Shown here one piece after another: positions 5,581 through 47,041 of a DNA stretch of 64,000 bases (the stretch's first letter is position 1; every line of letters starts with the position of its first letter). The notes beneath the pieces are model-generated. The model ran no database searches. It was not told the DNA's origin and was given only the letters and a program-made list of their open reading frames with translations. The DNA is from Dehalococcoidia bacterium (lineage in GTDB: Bacteria > Chloroflexota > Dehalococcoidia > Lucifugimonadales > GCA-2712585), in assembly GCA_963665075.1 (NCBI GenBank), contig OY762063.1:502844-566843 (forward strand). Direction: 5' to 3'. Both the position numbers and the translations under genes were made by a program.

Positions 5581-5738
5581 CATCATTCCCGCCTACCTCC
5601 TTCGTCATTCCCGCCTACCTCCTTCGTCATTCCCGCCTACCTCCTTCGTCATTCCCGTCTACCTCCTTCGTCATTCCCGTCTACCTCCTTCGTCATTCCC
5701 GCCTACCTCCTTCGTCATTCCCGCGTAGGCGGGAATCC
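5581..5738 (+). repeat. Tandem array of six 22-bp half-hairpin units (CGTCATTCCCGCCTACCTCCTT) ending in one complete family-A hairpin (CGTCATTCCCGCGTAGGCGGGAATCC)
   Basis: Read directly. Unit starts fall at 5581, 5603, 5625, 5647, 5669 and 5691, and the terminal full hairpin is at 5713-5738. Confidence 0.9.
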
Positions 5739-5860: not shown

Positions 5861-7987
5861 ATGACGCAATACGTAAAGTCATCCAAACTGAGAACACTGG
5901 CAATTGTGGCAGCGCTTCTTGCGTTGGCCCTGGTTATCTTTGCGTGTGGTGCGGACGACGAAACTCCCGAACCGGCTCCGCCGCCCACTCCGGTCGACAT
6001 AGCCGCAATCACCAGCGGGATTTCCGCCGGCATCAACGCCCAGATTGAGCAGACCATCAGGAACGAGATGGCGAACATGCAGCCGCCTCTCTCGGAAGAC
6101 CAGATTCGCTCCCTCATTGAGCAGGCCGTCGGCGAAAGCGCGCCCGAAGGCGTCGACGCCGCCGAGATACAAGCTATGGTGGACAGCGCAGTGGCCGCCG
6201 CCGCTGAGGCCGGTGTGAAACAGGAAGATGTGACCGCCGCAATCGGCGCCGCACTGGCCGCCGCAGCCGCAGCCCAGACGGAACCTCTCACAGAGGCGGA
6301 CGTGGCCCGGATTGTCAAGGCGGCCGTCGCCACGCCCGAACCCGCCCCCACGCCCGCGCCCACCGCCATGCCTACACCCGCCCCAACCGAACCGCCCGTG
6401 GCAGCAATGATGCCGGTGGAATCCCGCCTCAAAGTCGCCATGCCCAATCCCGCATACGGCGAGCGCATGGAAGCCTCGGTGCACAACGTAGTGGGTGGTT
6501 TCCTCCTTCCAAACGCCGAATCCCTGGTGGGCGACCACCACATCACCGGCGAATACTACCCCATGCTCGCCACCGAATGGTCCGTCGGCGAAAACGCCAG
6601 GTCGTGGACTTTCAAGCTGCGAGAGGGCGTGCCCTGGCACGGCATCGGCAGCGATTTCTCCGCCCAGGACGTAATCCACTCCTTCAACCGGACCCACGCC
6701 AAGGTGTCGGTCCACAGCTACCGCAGCCGCTGGCCCACTCCGGACGGCGCCGCCGGACAAGTGGTGGGAAGCATCACGGCTGTCGGAGACAACGAAGTCA
6801 TATTCGACATGGTCGGCCCCTACACCCGCCTCCACAAAGCCGTGGCCGGCAGCGAAGGGCTGTTCATGACCAGCAAGAGCTACTTCGACCTGGTTGGCGA
6901 AGACGGCTATCGCGATAATCCCGTAGGCACCGGCCCTTACCAATTCGTTGAATTACGGTCGTCTGAGTACAGCGTATGGGAAGCCGTCCCCTACGACCAC
7001 TACCGCGTGAATCCCCAGTTCCCCGAGCTTCAGTTGGTATTCTCCGACGAGGAAGCTACCAGGATTGCCATGATGGTGAACCAGGAAACTCACACCACCG
7101 TGGTGTCCAAGACCCTCACCAGCCAGGCCGAGGGCATCCCCCATCTCAAGGTTGAGACTACTACCCTTCCAACGCTGCACCTTAACATCTTCTTCGGCGG
7201 CAACTACCCCGCGGATTTCCTCACCGCTACGGGCGAGCCGGCGGTTGATGAGAATCTTCCCTGGTACGGACACAGCGAAAACGCCGTAAAGGTCAGGCGC
7301 GCCCTCTCAATGGCCATTGACCGGGACGCCATCAACAACGCCTTCTACGACGGCGACGGCGAACCCGTCATCGTGTCGCTGTTCCATCCCGGTCTGGGTC
7401 CGTGGAAGTCCGAATGGGAGGCGAGATACAACGAGCTTCACGCCTACAATCCGGAGATGGCCCGCCAGCTTCTCGCCGAAGCCGGCTATCCTGACGGCAT
7501 AACCGGTTACAAGTGGGCGCTCTACTTCATCGACATCGCCCCGGAGGGGCTGGATATCGCCGAGGCAGTGGTGGCCATGTGGAAGGAGATTGGCGTTGAG
7601 ATTGAGATAGAAACCACCGAAAGAAGCACCTGGGGCGGCGCGGGTAGAGCCAAGGAAACCGCCGGCTACGTCTACATCTGGCACTCAACCTACGCCCCCA
7701 TCGAAGCCCGGTTCGAAATCTACAGTTGGAGCGGCAGGCCCGGCGCCGGGTTCACCTCGGAGAAATTCGACGAACTCTACCTCGACCTCCAGAACACCAC
7801 AAGCGTCGAGGAGATGGATCAGAAGCTCTTGAACCTCGGCGACGTTATACAGGAAACCATTCCTTACGTCCCCCTCTTCTGGGTCTTCACCGATTACATC
7901 GTCAACACCAGAGTCATTGACGACTACACCAGCGCCGGCATCTGGCAGGTGCACGACTGGGAGTATGCGGTGCCGGTGATGCAATAG
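5861..7987 (+). CDS. ABC transporter substrate-binding protein, family 5 (peptide/nickel type), probable lipoprotein
   Basis: About 708 aa. It has an N-terminal signal with a lipobox-like LVIFACG, then an Ala/Pro-rich linker, then an SBP_bac_5-like body. ATG 5861 is preferred over GTG 5852 because of the upstream AAGGTGG. Confidence 0.85.
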   Translation: MTQYVKSSKLRTLAIVAALLALALVIFACGADDETPEPAPPPTPVDIAAITSGISAGINAQIEQTIRNEMANMQPPLSEDQIRSLIEQAVGESAPEGVDAAEIQAMVDSAVAAAAEAGVKQEDVTAAIGAALAAAAAAQTEPLTEADVARIVKAAVATPEPAPTPAPTAMPTPAPTEPPVAAMMPVESRLKVAMPNPAYGERMEASVHNVVGGFLLPNAESLVGDHHITGEYYPMLATEWSVGENARSWTFKLREGVPWHGIGSDFSAQDVIHSFNRTHAKVSVHSYRSRWPTPDGAAGQVVGSITAVGDNEVIFDMVGPYTRLHKAVAGSEGLFMTSKSYFDLVGEDGYRDNPVGTGPYQFVELRSSEYSVWEAVPYDHYRVNPQFPELQLVFSDEEATRIAMMVNQETHTTVVSKTLTSQAEGIPHLKVETTTLPTLHLNIFFGGNYPADFLTATGEPAVDENLPWYGHSENAVKVRRALSMAIDRDAINNAFYDGDGEPVIVSLFHPGLGPWKSEWEARYNELHAYNPEMARQLLAEAGYPDGITGYKWALYFIDIAPEGLDIAEAVVAMWKEIGVEIEIETTERSTWGGAGRAKETAGYVYIWHSTYAPIEARFEIYSWSGRPGAGFTSEKFDELYLDLQNTTSVEEMDQKLLNLGDVIQETIPYVPLFWVFTDYIVNTRVIDDYTSAGIWQVHDWEYAVPVMQ

Positions 7988-8060
7988 GCCGCCTATGGTA
8001 TCCTGAACCCGACAACCCAACACAATCGGATGCCGTTGCATAACCGCCGCAAGGGTTGCG

Positions 8061-8230
8061 ATTAACCTCTTCCCCCTTGATGGGGACCTTTGCATAACCC
8101 CCATTCCCGCGCAGGCGGGAATCCAGGGGTGGGCTGCTTAGGTATGAATTCGCTGCTTCTTTGACAGAATGCTCAGGCGAATAGGTAGTTACGCAAAGGT
8201 CTCCTTGATGGGGGAAGATTGAGATGGGGG
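8061..8230 (+). mobile_element. MITE-like ~170-bp element, copy 2
   Basis: It starts ATTAACCTCTTCCCCCTTGATGGGGACCTTTGCATAAC and ends GTTACGCAAAGGTCTCCTTGATGGGGGAAGATTGAGATGGGGG. It has the same architecture and internal core (GGCTG.TTAGGTA...CTTCTTTGACAGAATG) as 5153-5324. Confidence 0.6.
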
Positions 8231-8298
8231 TGACTCAAGTGGTATAGACGATGCATTTCGCGGTTACGCAGAAGTCTCAAAATCAGAGGAGGTTAGCA

Positions 8299-9375
8299 AT
8301 GAAGGTCCCCTACGGAGCCGTTGACGCCGACGGCCACATCAACGAACCCGAAACCAAGCTCATGGAATACCTGGAAGGCCCCTACGCCGACATCAAGAAC
8401 TTCCACAGCTACATCCCCGGCAGCGACGGCATAGTCGGCGGCAGCGTCGTCGCCGGCAAGGACTACATGGACTCCACCCTCGGCGGCCGCCTCGGCGCCC
8501 ACGGCGGCCCCGACTTCCCCACGCCCCAGGAGTGGCTCGACAACGCCGACGCCGGCGGCCTGGAGACCATCTTCGTCTTCCCCACAACCCTCCTCGGCTA
8601 CTCCCGCATCATCGACCCCGACTACCTCGTCGCCCTCACCAAATCCTACAACAACTACGTCTCCGAGGAGTGGCTCAAGTTCAGCCCCCGCTTCAAGTCC
8701 GTCGCCCTCATGCCCCTCATGGACGTGGACGAATCCATCAAGGAAATGCGCCGCTGCGTCACCGAATTGGGCTACAACGGCGTCTTCATCGCCGCCGTCG
8801 GATTCGGCCTCCTTGGCGAAAAGCGCCTCGACCCCTTCTACGAAGAAGCCGAAAAGCTCGGCACCTTCATCGCCGTCCACGGCGGCCACGCCACCGGCGA
8901 GTCCCAGAAGTACACCAAATTCATCCAGCGCCACACCATCGGCTTCCCCGTTTCCGCCATGATGCAGATGATGCACATGACCTACGAAGGCGTCTACGAA
9001 AAATTCCCCAACCTCAAAGTCGGATACCTGGAAGCCGGATGCACCTGGGTCCCCTACCTCCTCGACCGGATGGACGAGGAATGGGAGAAGCGGGGCTGGT
9101 TCGAGACCCCCAACTGCAAGAAGAAGCCCAGCGACTACATCAAGGGCGGCAACGTCTACATCCACGCCGAGCCCGGCGAGGAGTTGATCCCCGAAGTCAT
9201 CCGCGTCATGGGCCGGAACCGCCTCTTCTACGCCTCCGACTGGCCCCACTGGGACAACGAATACCCCGAAAGCCTCTACCACATCTACAACCGCGACGAC
9301 CTCACCGAAACCGACAAACGCGCCATCCTCCGCGACAACGCCGCCGAAATGTACGGCCTCCCCAACCCCCCCTAA
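8299..9375 (+). CDS. Amidohydrolase_2-family metal-dependent hydrolase/decarboxylase (ACMSD-like)
   Basis: It begins MKVPYGAVDADGHINEP, giving the D-x-H metal motif, and has ASDWPHWD near the C-terminus. The start at 8299 follows the SD AGAGGAGG. The ORF track starts earlier, at 8251. Confidence 0.85.
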   Translation: MKVPYGAVDADGHINEPETKLMEYLEGPYADIKNFHSYIPGSDGIVGGSVVAGKDYMDSTLGGRLGAHGGPDFPTPQEWLDNADAGGLETIFVFPTTLLGYSRIIDPDYLVALTKSYNNYVSEEWLKFSPRFKSVALMPLMDVDESIKEMRRCVTELGYNGVFIAAVGFGLLGEKRLDPFYEEAEKLGTFIAVHGGHATGESQKYTKFIQRHTIGFPVSAMMQMMHMTYEGVYEKFPNLKVGYLEAGCTWVPYLLDRMDEEWEKRGWFETPNCKKKPSDYIKGGNVYIHAEPGEELIPEVIRVMGRNRLFYASDWPHWDNEYPESLYHIYNRDDLTETDKRAILRDNAAEMYGLPNPP

Positions 9376-9388
9376 CCCCCACCCTAAC

Positions 9389-9692
9389 CGTCATTCCCGC
9401 CACCCCTCCTCGTCATTCCCGCCACCCCCTCCGTCATTCCCGCCACCCCCTCCGTCATTCCCGCGCAGGCGGGAATCCATCCCCATAACCCATAGGGGCG
9501 GGTTTCAAACCCGCCCTCTTACCCTAACCCCCTCTCCCATCCTGGGAGAGGGTTGGGGTGAGGGCACCTCCCACGCTCACACCCGTAGGGGCGACCGGCC
9601 GGTCGCCCCTAACCCATTGTCGCTCACCCTGAGCCTGTCGAAGGGTCGAGCGCCCTCTCCCTCCGTCATTCCGGCGAAAGCCGGAATCCAGA
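9389..9692 (+). repeat. Intergenic mosaic of palindromic repeats: three 22-bp half-units plus a full family-A hairpin, then families E, F, D, B and A
   Basis: Read directly:
- CGTCATTCCCGCCACCCC.TCC x3, then CGTCATTCCCGCGCAGGCGGGAATCC.
- TAGGGGCGGGTTTCAAACCCGCC.
- CCCTCTCCCATCCTGGGAGAGGGTTGGGGTGAGGGC.
- GTAGGGGCGACCGGCCGGTCGCCCCTA.
- CGCTCACCCTGAGCCTGTCGAAGGGTCGAGCG.
- GTCATTCCGGCGAAAGCCGGAATCC. Confidence 0.9.
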
Positions 9693-9712
9693 AATGCATG
9701 ACTTGGCTACTG

Positions 9713-12580
9713 CTACGACTGACGCAGGAACTCACCCCAAGCGCGGCTTAATTCCTCGCCGGCTATCAAGTTAATTCCCATGCGCCGTGCGTACCTGGTG
9801 GCCCTATTGGAGAACTTGCTTGTAGTGACGAGGTAGCTTTCTCCAACGTCGGTCTCGCCAGCTATAGCGCCGTAGAATTCACGTGCTTTGCCCACCGACA
9901 CGGTTCCTTTGTATCGCTTGCATTGTACGACGACTCGGGAAGGAGGAGGGTGAAGCCGATAGCCGTCTAAGTCGATGCCTCCATCGTCAGAGGCCTTTGT
10001 AGTGTGTAGAAGGAATCCTTTCCACCAGCGGAACAAGTCGCGTATAGCCTCTTCAAACTCGGTGGGAGATAACTCGTAGAGGTTACTTTGCCATTTCCGG
10101 TCTGGTTGGACAGGATGTGTATCTGGGGGAAATTCCAAAGGCGGGTGGTTTGCGTTTGGCCCTTCAATCAATGTTGATGGAGTCTCATTGTCTTCATCAG
10201 GCACAGGCAGTCCAAACAAGCCGTACAAGTCTTTGTCCGTGAGACTGTTCAGATCCCCGTCATCAGCTATTGGCTTCTGACCAAACAAATCATGGAATGC
10301 TGCGCGCTTTTGCTGTAGCAGGTCGAATATGCGCTCTTCAATGGTGTCGGCAGCATATAGCGAGTGGATGAACACGGGCTTTTTTTGGCCTATGCGATAT
10401 ACCCTGGCCGAGGCTTGATCTACGACGGCAGGGTTCCACCAGTGGTCGAAGTGAAAGACATGGTTTGCACGGGTGAGGGTAAGTCCCTGACCGCCTGCTC
10501 TGGCAGACATGAGCAGCACATTGTTTATATCCGATTCTTGGAAATCGGCAAGGACTTGGTCGCGCCTGCTTGTAGATAATGAGCCATCAAATTGTAACGG
10601 AGCAAACTGCTGAAGTTTGGGTTCAATTTTCTTCAGTGTTTTGCCCGGATACTGGGAAAAGACTAGTGCTTTGTCGTTGTTGTCAACAAGACTTTGAAGC
10701 TCATCCTCCAAAAAACTCAACTTACAGCTTTGGCTGGATGAATCCTCATAGTTACATATCTGCTTTAGCTTGGTGATGAGGGCAAATACGTGTATTCGTG
10801 TTGCGTCAGTTCCCATACGTCTCAAGGTTTCTACCTCTTGGTTCTCCGTCGCATCATAAACCTTGCGCTGTGATGGAAGCAGGTCCAGCCAATGGTCTTG
10901 GTGGGTGAGTTCGGGTAGTTCAATATCAACGTCTTCAATGGTGCGCCTTTTCAAGTACGGACGCATCTTGAGGCGCACTTCGTTTTTGGTATACCAGTCC
11001 GCGTTATCCTCGTAGAACAAGCCAGGTTTGATAAAGCCAAACAAGGCAACAACATCAGTCTCTTTGTTTTCCATAGGTGTACCAGTCAAGGCCCACCTAT
11101 ATTGGGGCATCAGCCGTATGACAGATCGGTGGGTCTTGGTGCCGGGATTCTTGATTTTCTGCGCCTCGTCCAGAACGCACAGGTCGAACCTGTTGGATTC
11201 AAATTCGCCAATGTCATTGCGAAGGGTCTCATAGGATACGACGTATATTTCTGCGTGGGACTTCCACGCTTCTGTCCGTACCACCCTATCGCCCTGCAAT
11301 CTGAATATTCTTAGTTCAGGTGCCCATGACCTGATTTCTCTTTCCCAAGTGTTTGTCATGCTGGCGGGGCAGACAACCAGAGTCCGCTGTAACTCCCCAC
11401 GCCGAAACAGGATTCGCATAGCAATGATGGCCTGTATGGTCTTGCCTAGACCCATCTCGTCGGCTAGGAGTGCTGACTCTCGTTCTACCAGCCACTTTAC
11501 GCCTGCAACTTGGAATGGGTATGGTGTCTTTCCATTGGGAAATATCAGAGGTTGTCCCTGGACGGGCAGAATTGGAGGTTGGAGTATATAGAATAGCTGC
11601 TCAAACACATCGACTATGTGGGGTTGACGTCCAATTGGTTGTCCGGGGGCTCTGACCCGATTATTCAGACATATAGAGCATTGGGACTTGGTGACACCAT
11701 GCCGGCACTTTCTTTCCAATCCGGGGAGTTGAGTTTGCCGACCAACTTTTTCGTCTTCTTCGGGGGCGTAGTGTGACCTGTAGTCTTTTCCAACAGTCCG
11801 AGCGGAGGTCATCAGTTTGAAAGGCGATGATATGATTTCCGGGACTTCGAGGAAATTTACGTACCTCATAATGGTGGGTTTGCTGAAGGGCAACAAGTAT
11901 TTCAAGACATCTTCTGTCTCAACAGCGGTAAAGACCAAACCGTCGCGGAGTCTGAGGACTTTCGAAGGATGCAGAAATGCGTCACCGTTTAATGCGTCGA
12001 CGACGATAGTTACGTCATCCCAACCAGGCAGATAATCCGAGACTTCAACTATCTCAACCTTGGGAAAAGCTAACCCGTCATCTAGAGCATCGCTTTTGAC
12101 TTTGGCTTGTGCAAGCAGAAAATCTTCGCTGAGAACTTTCGGCTCAATGAAGGTGAGACCATCATCTAAGGCGTCGCTGGTCGTTTCAGCGGGATCAATC
12201 AGAAAGTTGTCGGAGGGTACGTCCGCCTCAGGTATCAACGCAATCGAATCGCGTAGGGGGATCTCCAATGCCGGAATGCGAACAAGCTGAGTCTCAGCTT
12301 CCATTATTAGCAGGCCAGGAAAACTGAGTGCTTTCGGCTTCTTGAGCAAATAAATATGCTCTAGACTTATCGCTTGAGATGGGGGTAAGTGCGTAAACCT
12401 TGCCAAGCCCCCGCCTAGCCGTGAAAGGTCCACGGTTGGAGGCGCTTCTATGGACGCGAGATGGCTGCAATCCAACGCATGAGAGGCCTTAATCGGATAC
12501 AGCTTTCTGGTCAACACCTCAGGGGGTGCAATCGGGTTTAGCCTTTTGGCCAACCCAAAGGGCATTAGTTTAAGAGCCAT
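9713..12580 (-). CDS. SNF2-family helicase fused to a C-terminal Mrr-type (PD-(D/E)xK) restriction endonuclease domain, with a ~330-aa uncharacterised N-terminal region
   Basis: 955 aa.
- Helicase motif I is LLADEMGLGKT and motif II is LDEAQKIKN.
- The helicase C-terminal region reads LLMSARAGGQGLTLTRANHVFHFDHWWNPAVVDQASARVYRIGQ.
- The C-terminal Mrr_cat-like core reads DDGGIDLDGY...VVVQCKRYKG...YLVTTSKFS.
- The N-terminal region has a Cys/His cluster (CRHGVTKSQCSIC) and an internal SDALDDGL(T/A)F duplication.
- The gene is visibly AT-richer than its neighbours. Confidence 0.9.
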   Translation of the reverse strand: MALKLMPFGLAKRLNPIAPPEVLTRKLYPIKASHALDCSHLASIEAPPTVDLSRLGGGLARFTHLPPSQAISLEHIYLLKKPKALSFPGLLIMEAETQLVRIPALEIPLRDSIALIPEADVPSDNFLIDPAETTSDALDDGLTFIEPKVLSEDFLLAQAKVKSDALDDGLAFPKVEIVEVSDYLPGWDDVTIVVDALNGDAFLHPSKVLRLRDGLVFTAVETEDVLKYLLPFSKPTIMRYVNFLEVPEIISSPFKLMTSARTVGKDYRSHYAPEEDEKVGRQTQLPGLERKCRHGVTKSQCSICLNNRVRAPGQPIGRQPHIVDVFEQLFYILQPPILPVQGQPLIFPNGKTPYPFQVAGVKWLVERESALLADEMGLGKTIQAIIAMRILFRRGELQRTLVVCPASMTNTWEREIRSWAPELRIFRLQGDRVVRTEAWKSHAEIYVVSYETLRNDIGEFESNRFDLCVLDEAQKIKNPGTKTHRSVIRLMPQYRWALTGTPMENKETDVVALFGFIKPGLFYEDNADWYTKNEVRLKMRPYLKRRTIEDVDIELPELTHQDHWLDLLPSQRKVYDATENQEVETLRRMGTDATRIHVFALITKLKQICNYEDSSSQSCKLSFLEDELQSLVDNNDKALVFSQYPGKTLKKIEPKLQQFAPLQFDGSLSTSRRDQVLADFQESDINNVLLMSARAGGQGLTLTRANHVFHFDHWWNPAVVDQASARVYRIGQKKPVFIHSLYAADTIEERIFDLLQQKRAAFHDLFGQKPIADDGDLNSLTDKDLYGLFGLPVPDEDNETPSTLIEGPNANHPPLEFPPDTHPVQPDRKWQSNLYELSPTEFEEAIRDLFRWWKGFLLHTTKASDDGGIDLDGYRLHPPPSRVVVQCKRYKGTVSVGKAREFYGAIAGETDVGESYLVTTSKFSNRATRYARRMGINLIAGEELSRAWGEFLRQS

Positions 12581-12604
12581 TAACTACTCACGCCGATTCC
12601 GAGG

Positions 12605-13159
12605 CTACTTGAACCTTGAGTCTCTTTCCGACAGGACTCTAACGGCGGTGGCGATTCGTTGGAACGGCTCCAACAAATCCACCTGGTTGAAGACCTGCTC
12701 CAACGCCTCACGGACGGATTCATAGTCAGACTCATAACCATGATGGGTTGCAGCAGTTATCGGCTGAAATCCGCCTATGCCACTCTCAAGGCGATTTTGT
12801 TTTGCTGACCCTCCACCAGGGGACAAGCTTTCTCCGTATTTCTCCAAATGGATAACCGGAACGTCAACGCGTTCTCTCAATTCCAGCATCATTTTGCTCT
12901 CCACCAGGCACAAATGGGGTGGCGCTTTTAGTGCTTTCACCAAGGGCGAGCCTATCAGTTCGTTGAACAGGTATGGCCTTAGGGTGTCTCCGTAAAGCGC
13001 TTTCTGAGCGCCAGTCGGACGCGTAGGCAGAGTGCAGTGAAACTCTTGCGGCACACCCCGCCGATCTATGACCATTATGCCGCCCATGTATCCTGCATTG
13101 TCGCTGGTGCTGTGAACCGAAAAGTATGCGATGAATGTATCGTTTTCGTGATTGCTCAT
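12605..13159 (-). CDS. Hypothetical protein (no family recognised), first gene of a two-gene operon with the SNF2-Mrr fusion
   Basis: 184 aa. Its stop lies 24 bp upstream of the SNF2-Mrr start on the same strand, and an SD-like GAGAGGAAG precedes the ATG. The composition is the same AT-richer one as the downstream gene. Confidence 0.7.
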   Translation of the reverse strand: MSNHENDTFIAYFSVHSTSDNAGYMGGIMVIDRRGVPQEFHCTLPTRPTGAQKALYGDTLRPYLFNELIGSPLVKALKAPPHLCLVESKMMLELRERVDVPVIHLEKYGESLSPGGGSAKQNRLESGIGGFQPITAATHHGYESDYESVREALEQVFNQVDLLEPFQRIATAVRVLSERDSRFK

Positions 13160-13257
13160 TATGCTTCCTCTCTAAGTTGAGCGAAGGAATTGTTACTGGC
13201 GAAATCATACCATAACCGTCAAAAGACAAGCTGCGGAAATAGATGTATACTCACTTG

Positions 13258-13331
13258 GCCCCTGTAGCTCAACTGGATTGAGCGTCCTCATGCTAAGTCG
13301 AAGGTTGCGAGTTCAAGTCTCGTCAGGGACG
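13258..13331 (+). tRNA. tRNA-like sequence with a degenerate anticodon stem (possible pseudo-tRNA); identity uncertain
   Basis: A 74-nt cloverleaf can be drawn: GCCCCTG-TA-GCTC-AACTGGATT-GAGC-G-TCCTC-ATGCTAA-GTCGA-AGGTT-GCGAG-TTCAAGT-CTCGT-CAGGGAC-G. The D arm and the T arm (GTTCAAGTC) are good. The acceptor stem has one C.A mismatch and the anticodon stem has only 3 of 5 pairs. In the canonical register the anticodon reads GCU, but there is no long variable arm as expected for tRNA-Ser. Confidence 0.5.
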
Positions 13332-13416
13332 TTGACAAGATACGAAATATATTGATAGGGTGGCGAAAGCATGAGGATGCTAGCCGCTTGAGCGGTTATC
13401 CGTTGACTGGCAATAT

Positions 13417-13452
13417 GCCCACCTGATTCTTCTAGAGTAAGGGTGGGCTTTT
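13417..13452 (+). terminator. Putative Rho-independent terminator downstream of the tRNA-like gene
   Basis: GCCCACC-(18 nt loop)-GGTGGGC followed by TTTT. Confidence 0.4.
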
Positions 13453-13599
13453 GCTTTAATCGGCAATCTGCCCTTTCACCCATCCCCTCTGGATTCCCGC
13501 CTACGCGGGAATGACGGATAATTGTGCGCTCACCCTGAGCCACAACCACACCGCTCACCCTGAGCCTGTCGAAGGGTCGAGCGCCCCCCGACCCTAAAC

Positions 13600-14697: not shown

Positions 14698-14967
14698 TCC
14701 ATCGCCTCACTCTGTCATTCTGAGAATCTACACCCTGCCTACCGTCATTCGCGCACCCCTTCCATACATTCCCGCCGCCCCCTACCGTCATTCCCGCGCC
14801 CCCTCCGTCATTCCCGCGCAGGCGGGAATCCATCCCCCTTCGCCTCACTCTGTCATTCTGAGGTCTCCCGAAGAATCCCCATACCGCTCACCCTGAGCCC
14901 ATCCTGTACCACATACCCCCGCTCATCCTGAGCCTGTCGAAGGACTAAGCGCGAGCGTCCCCCAACC

Positions 14968-17455: not shown

Positions 17456-17549
17456 TTGTCATTCCGACCAGACCTTGTCATTCAGCCAGACTCTATCATC
17501 CCAACCAAACCCTGTCATTCCGGCCGGACCTTGTCATTCTGAGCGAAGC
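17456..17549 (+). repeat. Stutter of ~19-bp half-units (TTGTCATTCCGACCAGACC-like) ending in a family-G element (GTCATTCTGAGCGAAGCGAAGAATC)
   Basis: Read directly. Four degenerate TGTCATTC-type half-units precede the complete element. Confidence 0.75.
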
Positions 17550-18406: not shown

Positions 18407-18621
18407 CGTCATTCTCGCCCACCCACTCGTCATTCCCACGCACCCACTCGTCATTCCCACGCACCTACTCGTCATTCCCGCGCACCTTCTCGTCATTCCC
18501 GCGCACCTTCTCGTCATTCCCGCGCACCTTCTCGTCATTCCCGCGCACCTTCTCGTCATTCCCGCCCACCCTCTCGTCATTCCCACGCACCTTCTCGTCA
18601 TTCCCGCGTAGGCGGGAATCC
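18407..18621 (+). repeat. Tandem array of nine 21-bp half-hairpin units (CGTCATTCCCGCGCACCTTCT) ending in one complete family-A hairpin
   Basis: Unit starts fall at 18407+21k for k=0-9. The last unit is CGTCATTCCCGCGTAGGCGGGAATCC (18596-18621). Confidence 0.9.
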
Positions 18622-27057: not shown

Positions 27058-27318
27058 TTCTTTCTCCCTTTACTGCTTACGTCTGTTCGACGCGCAAAAG
27101 CACCCCCCAAACGCTTGCCAAAGTCTACCACATAACGCAATCCCACAAAGCAACCCCCCACCCGACCCACAATGCATCCTCGCTCACCCTGAGCCTGTCG
27201 AAGGGTCGAGCGCCGCCGCCGTCATTCCGGCGAAAGCCGGAATCCAGTCTTTTCCCTTCCCCCTCGATATAGCCCCTTGCATAACCGTCATTCCCGCAAA
27301 GGCGCGAATCCGACATCA

Positions 27319-46498: not shown

Positions 46499-46541
46499 AC
46501 GATGATACCTACACAAACAATCCCTTCCCCCTCATCTCCCT

Positions 46542-47041
46542 CTCGTCATTCCCGCGCCGGCGGGAATCCACTCCCCTCTTATCCCTTCCCCCTCATACCC
46601 ATCTCGTCATTCCCGCGCCGGCGGGAATCCACTCCCCTCTTATCCCTTCCCCCTCATACCCATCTCGTCATTCCCGCGCCGGCGGGAATCCATCCCCTCT
46701 TATCCCTTCCCCCTCATACCCATCTCGTCATTCCCGCGCCGGCGGGAATCCATTCCCTCTTATCCCTTCCCCCTCATACCCACCTCGTCATTCCCGCGCC
46801 GGCGGGAATCCATCCCCTCTTATCCCTTCCCCCTCATACCCATCTCGTCATTCCCGCGCCGGCGGGAATCCATCCCCTCTTATCCCTTCCCCCTCATACC
46901 CGCCTCGTCATTCCCGCGCAGGCGGGAATCCATCCCCTCTTATCCCTTCCCCCTCATACCCGCCTCGTCATTCCCGCGCAGGCGGGAATCCATCCCCTCT
47001 TATCCCTTCCCCCTTGACGGGGGAAGGTTAGGATGGGGGTG
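46542..47041 (+). repeat. Tandem array of eight 60-61-bp units, each a complete family-A hairpin plus a constant 35-nt tail; ends in a family-C hairpin
   Basis: The unit is CTCGTCATTCCCGCGCCGGCGGGAATCCA(C/T)(T)CCCCTCTTATCCCTTCCCCCTCATACCCAT. Unit starts fall at 46542, 46603, 46664, 46724, 46784, 46844, 46904 and 46964. The last two units switch the hairpin loop from GCCG to GCAG. Confidence 0.92.

Follow-up and report, generated by a model that had tools for sequence, protein, structure and literature searches.

Within the 64-kb window analysed here, by which we mean the whole 64,000-nucleotide stretch of contig OY762063.1 from a Dehalococcoidia bacterium, two adjacent minus-strand genes occupy a low-GC island (9700..13480, no strand assigned) that stands out in the GC profile at ~50% GC against ~60% for the backbone. 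The first gene (12605..13159, minus strand) encodes a 184-amino acid (aa) protein of an unnamed family with a predicted RNase H-like fold, and the second (9713..12580, minus strand), delimited by its open reading frame (ORF) and by Pfam, encodes a 955-aa SNF2 ATPase with a C-terminal Mrr-type nuclease. An earlier note on this DNA had proposed the pair as a candidate defence system, and its two ORFs, their coordinates, their common strand and the 24-bp gap between them were all recovered as described. The spacer itself (12581..12604, minus strand, set by the ORF ends) yielded no minus-strand terminator-like site in a consensus scan, and the two genes are therefore probably an operon. The AT-richness that the note ascribed to both genes is likewise real: the gene pair has a GC fraction of 0.504 against 0.596 for the remainder of the window, and 500-bp windows fall to 0.46-0.51 over about 10000-13500 between flanks of 0.57-0.68.

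Architecture of the two proteins

Pfam resolves three domains in the 955-aa protein, all encoded on the minus strand: SNF2-rel_dom at aa 356-612 (10745-11515, 173 bits), Helicase_C at aa 620-731 (10388-10723, 64 bits) and, at the C-terminus, the PD-(D/E)xK nuclease domain Mrr_cat at aa 835-946 (9743..10078, 74 bits against a 21-bit cut-off). Together with motif conservation, these matches delimit an SNF2 motor core at aa 345-790 (10211..11548, minus strand). Every motif that the earlier note had quoted is present, including LLADEMGLGKT (aa 371-381) and DEAQKIKN (aa 471-478) in the motor, GGIDLDGY (aa 867-874) and VVQCKRY (aa 884-890) in the nuclease, and SDALDDGL, which occurs twice; its description of a complete SNF2 ATPase followed by an Mrr nuclease thus agrees with both Pfam and the motifs. 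ATPase motifs I (GLGKT), II (DEAQ) and VI show no variation in 68 homologues, where K380, D471/E472 and R726/R729 are invariant, and with both lobes and all three motifs intact the protein qualifies as a member of the SNF2 family. The closest solved relative of the motor is the Snf2/Rad54 core of Sulfolobus SSO1653 (1z63, E 3e-66, aa 354-767). In the nuclease domain, E843, D866, D870, C887 and K888 reach 85% conservation or more among 80 sequences and Q886 of the Q-C-K motif falls in the 60-85% band, so that Mrr_cat and a D...(Q/E)xK signature mark the C-terminus as an Mrr-type PD-(D/E)xK nuclease.

The N-terminal region is of a different nature. No Pfam match covers aa 1-350, and an AlphaFold2 (AF2) model of aa 1-355, built from a 73-sequence alignment, has a mean predicted local distance difference test score (pLDDT) of 55, with values below 50 across most of the tail. 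Its confident parts are confined to aa 81-125 (about 80, without regular secondary structure), a Cys/His knuckle at ~290-310 (about 90) and a helix at 325-333. Because the model is mostly of low confidence, we rejected a structured globular N-terminal domain and regard the N-terminus as a probably disordered tail that carries short motifs and ends in a small probable zinc knuckle. The tail (aa 1-289; 11714..12580, minus strand), most of which is predicted to be disordered from its pLDDT, contains the two SDALDDGL copies (aa 135-142 and 163-170; 12155-12178 and 12071-12094, minus strand) and the short conserved motif RTVGKDY (11780-11800, minus strand), and is followed by the knuckle, C-x-H-G-x7-C-x2-C (aa 292-304, CRHGVTKSQCSIC), which lies together with a short helix at 11651..11713 (minus strand; alignment, pLDDT about 90). 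The alignment shows conservation of the knuckle and of the short R-x-x-G-K-x-Y motif within the multi-phylum branch to which the window's module belongs; the knuckle is not present in the Planctomycete branch. Of the ~330-aa uncharacterised N-terminal region in the earlier note, the Cys/His cluster and the duplication therefore stand, and most of the remainder appears to be disordered.

The 184-aa protein, in which the same note had recognised no family, drew no family match from Pfam, NCBIfam, PADLOC or PHROG, and a sequence-profile search of the PDB was equally without match. It nonetheless belongs to a large family. A single-sequence search recovers 29 clusters and a profile search more than 1,000 clusters at 90% identity, while an exhaustive hidden Markov model search of 1.84 billion representatives yields 1,678 clusters at 50% identity, nearly all of them stand-alone proteins of 175-200 aa. 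The AF2 model of the protein is confident (pLDDT 90.8, predicted TM-score 0.88), and a Foldseek search against the PDB places endonuclease V (EndoV) structures at the top, namely 4xpu (E 1e-5) and 3ga2 (query TM-score, TMq, 0.60); EndoV matches overall span TMq 0.54-0.60 and E 1e-5 to 3e-4. The next matches are the AfAgo PIWI domain, the short-Ago SPARDA and SPARTA complexes, a DUF99 protein and RNase H1, and the best viral structural match is likewise an EndoV. The predicted structure thus assigns the protein to the RNase H-like fold of the EndoV/PIWI clade. Whatever its function, this family of ~1,700 clusters merits definition as a new EndoV/PIWI-like clade of the RNase H fold.

Across 79 members, conservation is concentrated at G23, G26, P37, E39, F40, C42, T43, P45, P48, Q52, L55, Y56, G57, L73 and P101 and in the C-terminal motif D161-L-x-E164-P-F-x-R168-I. 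Over this set no acidic residue of strand beta1 is conserved, and the position after beta4 that aligns with the catalytic Asp of EndoV is variable in the family, so that the canonical EndoV catalytic carboxylates are absent. Because the beta1 acid is not conserved and the post-beta4 position varies, we infer a non-catalytic, nucleic-acid-binding or adaptor role for the small protein; E39, D161 and E164 may alternatively form an unconventional active site. Two rare variants were also observed, one with an N-terminal DNA-ligase Ia-like (Nlig-Ia) segment (P0123) and one with an insertion resembling the C-terminal part of ribosomal L7/L12 in a variable loop (P0342).

Conservation and genomic setting of the pair

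To place the pair in other genomes, one genome per GTDB species was scanned, which returned 110 relatives of the small gene, and 80 loci were kept. By tblastn, an SNF2 homologue follows the small gene directly, in the same orientation, in 73 of the 80. The seven loci without an SNF2 match are accounted for by contig ends (L039, L070, L072, L076, L078) or by a partial match to the small gene itself (L022, L061), and in four of the 73 the SNF2 gene is frameshifted or interrupted (L001, L038, L045, L063). Where the SNF2 ORF of a homologous locus is intact, its start often lies 0-30 bp past the end of the small gene, or the two share 4 bp. Starting from SNF2 homologues, or from the closest relative of the small protein, nine further contexts were reached and checked for homology of the pair; all carry the small gene directly upstream (9/9). 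The pairwise identities of the two proteins correlate with r = 0.81. Neighbour clustering identified no third conserved gene apart from a lineage-specific, Planctomycete synteny, and a search for Rosetta-stone fusions of the small protein with SNF2 among 120 SNF2 homologues found none. The earlier note had named a lack of co-conservation as what would undo its proposal; on this point the proposal clearly survives, and the comparative data support the view that the two genes form a conserved functional pair.

Several loci depart from the simple two-gene layout. Two tandem paralogues of the small gene precede SNF2 in L027, L035, L057, L061, L064, L066, L068, L077 and L079, at about 7000-8600 in each of these Planctomycete loci, a possible sign that the partner works as a (hetero)dimer. 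In 27 Planctomycete loci a divergent ORF without a Pfam family, 150-240 aa long with a median of 166, lies upstream of the small gene (e.g., L024:7216-7668, minus strand); it may be a third component specific to that lineage or no more than a syntenic neighbour. In a Dehalococcoidia metagenome-assembled genome (L001:8001-13413), the module is interrupted, with ~3.1 kb of additional DNA separating the small gene from a truncated SNF2-Mrr ORF of 565 aa, which is accompanied by a 144-aa fragment.

The large protein varies at its C-terminus. Mrr_cat occupies this position in 11 of 68 genome loci and a 287-aa PNP_UDP_1 domain does so in two Nostoc genomes; among the 120 closest clusters in a large protein collection, about two thirds end in Mrr_cat, about one third in nothing, and one in SLFN_AlbA_2 (P0207). 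By domain content, the SNF2 C-terminus thus appears to be an exchangeable output domain, with the Mrr nuclease as an optional part. Clustering separates three groups, a Nostoc group with PNP, a large core-only Planctomycete group and a multi-phylum group that includes the window. The last of these comprises Dehalococcoidia, Anaerolineae, Acidobacteria, Aminicenantes and Ignavibacteriota together with a gammaproteobacterium, one Planctomycetaceae genome and a Bathyarchaeote, so that the window's branch is patchily distributed over at least seven phyla, an archaeon included.

The genomic setting of the non-Planctomycete loci carries signs of mobility. Their pairs have a GC content that lies, in the median, 7.4 points under the flanks, with an extreme of -16.6, and across the multi-phylum branch no shared synteny was found. 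At 85% and 70% identity, the closest relative of the module in the window resides in another context, beside DDE transposases. In L085 (5403-8789), a tyrosine recombinase/integrase gene overlaps the SNF2 stop codon by 4 bp and is followed by a type I restriction-modification (RM) system, Uma2 and ParE, an arrangement in which the pair may be cargo carried by an integrative element. Other multi-phylum contexts hold REase-ARP and PDDEXK genes; an rve integrase, a resolvase, IS21 and a Mu transposase; PIN and Uma2 genes in one; and RmuC with an HsdM fragment in another. Mobile or restriction genes thus accompany about two thirds of the nine extra contexts. In the window, Pfam identifies SBP_bac_5 and Amidohydro_2 on one side of the island and Ldh_2, an NHL-repeat protein and DUF1800 on the other, which places the island between metabolic genes, those of the Amidohydro_2 and the Ldh_2 sides. 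Given the AT shift, the differing context of the nearest relative and the mobile-gene neighbours, the cassette in the window shows signs of horizontal transfer and was probably acquired in this way.

Two further kinds of element surround the genes. A degenerate tRNA-like sequence of 74 nt (13258..13331, plus strand), called 'Ser(gct)' by ARAGORN and detected by the Rfam tRNA model at 45.9 bits against a 29-bit threshold, lies inside the island, 98 bp from the start of the small gene and divergent from it. Its acceptor and anticodon stems contain mismatches, and its GCU anticodon comes without the long variable arm of tRNA-Ser. Its cloverleaf has no thermodynamic support; taken alone, the sequence gives z = -0.4, and with its 3' flank (13258-13465) it folds with z = -3.9, a value that none of 200 shuffles equalled. 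In that longer fold, the D/anticodon arm is paired with sequence further downstream through a near-perfect inverted repeat of 14 nt (13281-13294 / 13368-13381). A sigma70-like promoter (AAGACA-17-TATACT, 13223-13251, plus strand) is found just upstream, and a GC-rich hairpin with a U-run is seen by eye at about 13419-13455, downstream of the tRNA-like sequence, which may belong to a discrete ~200-nt unit (13223-13465, plus strand). The statement in the earlier note that the module abuts a tRNA-like sequence is thus correct for this locus; we nevertheless rejected the sequence as a part of the module, as none of 17 homologous modules has it alongside and all 89 loci that were fetched lack it, and it is hence not conserved with the pair. 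Ordinary tRNAs occur near a few loci, which would fit insertion hot spots.

The second kind of element is repetitive. A 35-nt direct repeat flanks the island, with a left copy (CGCTCACCCTGAGCCTGTCGAAGGGTCGAGCGCCC, 9621..9655, plus strand) and a perfectly matching right copy (CGCTCACCCTGAGCCTGTCGAAGGGTCGAGCGCCC, 13552..13586, plus strand). Two more copies with 1-2 mismatches, at 27181 and 62753, reveal a dispersed family that resembles repetitive extragenic palindromic (REP) elements, and because these near-copies recur in the window the flanking pair is weak evidence for attachment (att) sites or an insertion scar, a candidate that we set aside. The 64-kb window contains 25 full palindromic REP elements, nearly always on the plus strand. 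The earlier note had remarked on the absence of REP repeats from the spacer between the genes, a remark to be corrected in that the elements are genome-wide and bracket the island without being specific marks of it. An array at 46520-47014, in which a 60-bp unit bearing the palindromic REP core GTCATTCCCGCGCCGGCGGGAATC recurs 8.2 times (97% matches), is a plain tandem repeat and not a CRISPR (clustered regularly interspaced short palindromic repeats) array. Intergenic half-REP arrays with a 19-22 nt period are found at 5583-5724, 9388-9464, 14738-14819, 17456-17539 and 18407-18608; their motif is GTCATTCC, mostly GTCATTCCCGC.

Candidate functions

The reading that we favour, and to which we give about an even chance of being right, is that the pair constitutes a self-contained, undescribed restriction-like defence module against foreign DNA. 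The core of such a module would be the small RNase H-fold protein, EndoV/PIWI-like and probably non-catalytic, acting with an SNF2 translocase on double-stranded DNA. SNF2 family motors translocate on duplex DNA, an established property of the family on which this part of the proposal draws. In the proposed mechanism, the small subunit would bind the SNF2 protein, probably through short motifs in the disordered N-terminal tail, and would recognize something abnormal in a nucleic acid, for instance a base that is modified or damaged, an end or a hybrid; recognition would license ATP-driven translocation by the SNF2 motor, and translocation would in turn deliver or activate the Mrr domain for DNA cleavage. 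That the two proteins form a complex, that the small one acts as a sensor, what the target would be and that the outcome is defence are all put forward here as conjecture, and the defence role as a whole is inferred from comparative data. What argues for it is the AT shift of the window's branch combined with the swapping of C-termini (Mrr, PNP_UDP_1, SLFN_AlbA_2 or none), to which the mobile and restriction neighbours and the precedent of HmaA, discussed below, can be added.

A considerable body of observations weighs against defence. The majority form of the SNF2 protein is core-only, with 125-300 aa of N-terminal sequence and a ~440-aa motor, and the nuclease, to which the earlier note appealed, is not core, as most members of the family are without Mrr. 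Planctomycete loci (n=53) have a host-like composition, with a median GC difference between pair and flanks of +1.1, and share a synteny of aldehyde dehydrogenase (Aldedh), Fe-ADH, a pyrroloquinoline quinone (PQQ) propeller protein, a radical-S-adenosylmethionine (radical-SAM) enzyme and often MnmG; this conserved housekeeping synteny and the host-like GC indicate that the Planctomycete branch is vertically inherited and housekeeping-looking. Purely metabolic flanks are found in the window and in two further contexts, L086 and L087, all three of which are clean insertions, and the neighbours of the 17 non-Planctomycete loci of the genome scan are mostly metabolic, with sporadic defence matches. 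No relatives were found in IMG/VR viral contigs, PLSDB plasmids or GenBank phages, and a phage or plasmid origin is accordingly without support. Finally, an hhalign comparison of the small-protein family with E. coli EndoV (Nfi, whose sequence was checked to be identical to 4xpu) returned a probability of 0.2%; since Pfam, the PDB profile search and hhalign are all negative, the likeness to EndoV is one of fold only, which keeps the sensing role conjectural. The defence proposal of the earlier note thus gains support from the AT shift, the exchangeable C-termini, the mobile and restriction neighbours and the HmaA parallel, and is weakened by the housekeeping Planctomycete branch, the metabolic neighbours and the lack of phage or plasmid copies.

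Much of the same evidence would suit a machine for genome maintenance, which we consider the main rival, though a distinctly less probable explanation. Here a Rad54/SSO1653-like motor and an EndoV/UvrC-like recogniser of lesions or branches would serve repair, recombination or the clearing of roadblocks, with Mrr as an optional processing nuclease. The effector-less core pair is, after all, the commonest form, the Planctomycete branch combines housekeeping synteny with host-like GC, and many contexts hold metabolic genes only; the top structural matches of the small protein are DNA-repair EndoV enzymes, the closest solved SNF2 protein, SSO1653, is reported to be an archaeal Rad54 (PMC2677860), one small-protein variant starts with a DNA-ligase Ia-like domain, and RmuC occurs once as a neighbour. 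Such a role is harder to reconcile with the window's own branch, which is patchy over at least seven phyla including an archaeon and devoid of shared synteny, consistently AT-shifted relative to its hosts and often adjoined by transposases, integrases and RM genes. Moreover, Mrr, PNP and Schlafen-AlbA_2 C-termini are typical of conflict systems rather than of repair, and the EndoV catalytic residues are absent from the small protein.

The two functions could also have diverged from one another. As a tentative proposal, which we think doubtful though not far-fetched, a minimal, catalytically dead EndoV/PIWI-like reader of nucleic acids would license an SNF2 motor and form with it the sensor-motor core of a broad new immune system with a swappable killing module (Mrr nuclease, PNP nucleosidase or Schlafen-like domain), an effector-less descendant or ancestor of which became fixed as a Planctomycete genome-maintenance machine. 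If true, such a split would represent a rare and traceable exchange between immunity and core DNA metabolism.

A toxin-antitoxin or abortive-infection system, in which SNF2-Mrr would be a latent toxin and the small protein an inhibitor released or inactivated on infection, appears improbable. The order of the genes, with the small one first, their tight coupling and their strict co-occurrence do resemble the logic of type II toxin-antitoxin systems, and PIN and ParE toxins are found near some loci; the pairing is, however, equally strict where the SNF2 protein carries no nuclease or other toxic domain, and because the pair persists without a toxic domain this model fits poorly. The small protein is, in addition, a globular 184-aa RNase H fold with strongly conserved surface motifs rather than a typical labile antitoxin, and occurs as two tandem gene copies in some Planctomycete loci. 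Least probable by far is that the large protein is an orphaned or decayed piece of a named system, such as ZorD of Zorya I, DrmD of DISARM, DpdE of Dpd or HmaA of Hma: although ZorD, DpdE, DrmD and HmaA head the PADLOC matches and NCBIfam lists ZorD, DrmD and DpdE, these matches are confined to the SNF2 core and the NCBIfam scores are far under the cut-offs, the window flanks hold no partner genes and homologous loci no recurring third gene, and the conserved partner belongs to a family missing from PADLOC.

Should the pair prove to be a defence system, it would add a family missed by the standard catalogues, given that Pfam, NCBIfam, PADLOC and PHROG contain no model of its small partner. It would also offer a clean setting in which to ask by what means an SNF2 translocase is directed to its target and linked to its outputs, as the same core occurs with three C-terminal domains or none. 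The family resides almost wholly in poorly cultured lineages (Chloroflexota, Planctomycetota, Acidobacteriota, Aminicenantes, Bathyarchaeota and Nostoc), which, to our knowledge, defence discovery has scarcely touched. With a mobile, AT-shifted branch on the one hand and a syntenic Planctomycete branch on the other, the question of immunity or housekeeping becomes directly testable.

Comparison with named systems

The earlier note could assign the pair to no named system, and the searches run since are in line with that judgement. The best PADLOC matches of the large protein are ZorD (250 bits) and DpdE (248 bits), followed by DrmD, BrxH and HmaA, and all cover the SNF2 core only (aa ~350-780). 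NCBIfam scores fall far below their cut-offs for ZorD (NF041790, 176 against 1500), DpdE (NF041062, 75 against 500), DrmD (NF038317 and NF038318, about 94 against 610 and 950) and RapA (66 against 576), and no partner genes of Zorya, DISARM, Dpd or Hma are found in the window flanks. In particular, the locus contains no zorA, zorB or zorC to go with its low ZorD score, as Zorya type I would require; drmA, drmB, drmC or methylase neighbours of DISARM are not present beside the low-scoring DrmD match; dpd genes do not flank the module, where the DpdE score is likewise low; and with respect to Hma, Pfam detects no DUF3883, and neither a methylase nor a DUF499 ATPase lies nearby. The domain content also differs from that of Mrr-type Type IV enzymes, as Pfam reports no Mrr_N or other reader domain. 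For the small protein, likeness to endonuclease V is limited to the fold, with no profile match and, of the catalytic residues D/E/D/H, no conserved acid on beta1 and a variable post-beta4 position, and an Argonaute or short prokaryotic Argonaute (pAgo) identity is contradicted by TMq values of 0.31-0.45 to PIWI proteins and by the lack of an APAZ, SIR2 or TIR partner. The literature searched held no published description of an SNF2 protein paired with such a small partner. On these comparisons the pair matches no named system, and membership in one is essentially excluded.

Partial likenesses are nevertheless instructive. HmaA, which on its own protects E. coli from T4 and needs both its helicase and its nuclease domain to do so (PMC11232893), combines an SNF2 ATPase with a C-terminal PD-(D/E)xK nuclease as the 955-aa protein does (PMC11232893). 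It differs in that its nuclease is of the DUF3883/NOV_C type rather than Mrr_cat and in being encoded with the methyltransferase HmaB and the DUF499 ATPase HmaC, and the PADLOC HmaA model matches the 955-aa protein at aa 662-758 only (78 bits). ZorD, which the literature describes as a helicase bearing an Mrr-like nuclease domain (PMC11890865), shares with the 955-aa protein an SNF2-type helicase joined to an Mrr-like nuclease and is its top PADLOC match at 250 bits, a match that leaves the Mrr domain uncovered. Neither HmaA nor ZorD has a small RNase H-fold, EndoV-like partner, in which both differ from the module. SSO1653, the closest solved SNF2 core by sequence, is reported to be an archaeal Rad54 that stimulates RadA strand exchange, with a role in recombination (PMC2677860); unlike the 955-aa protein, it has no Mrr domain. 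EndoV (Nfi) and the PIWI domain of Argonaute share the predicted fold of the small protein at an undetectable level of sequence relationship, and differ from it in that the small protein conserves neither the beta1 Asp nor the post-beta4 acid and, at 184 aa, is without a MID domain; it is therefore a member of neither family.

Restriction enzymes provide the last set of parallels. Mrr-type Type IV enzymes carry, like the 955-aa protein, an Mrr_cat domain with a D...QxK signature, and LlaGI, a Type ISP enzyme, is reported to couple a superfamily 2 (SF2) translocase to an Mrr-family nuclease (PMC2790903), the logic that the module also follows. Compared with Type IV, I and ISP enzymes, the module has no Mrr N-terminal reader, methyltransferase or specificity subunit in it or beside it, and its motor belongs to the SNF2 family, whereas the motor of Type I and ISP enzymes is another helicase-like ATPase.

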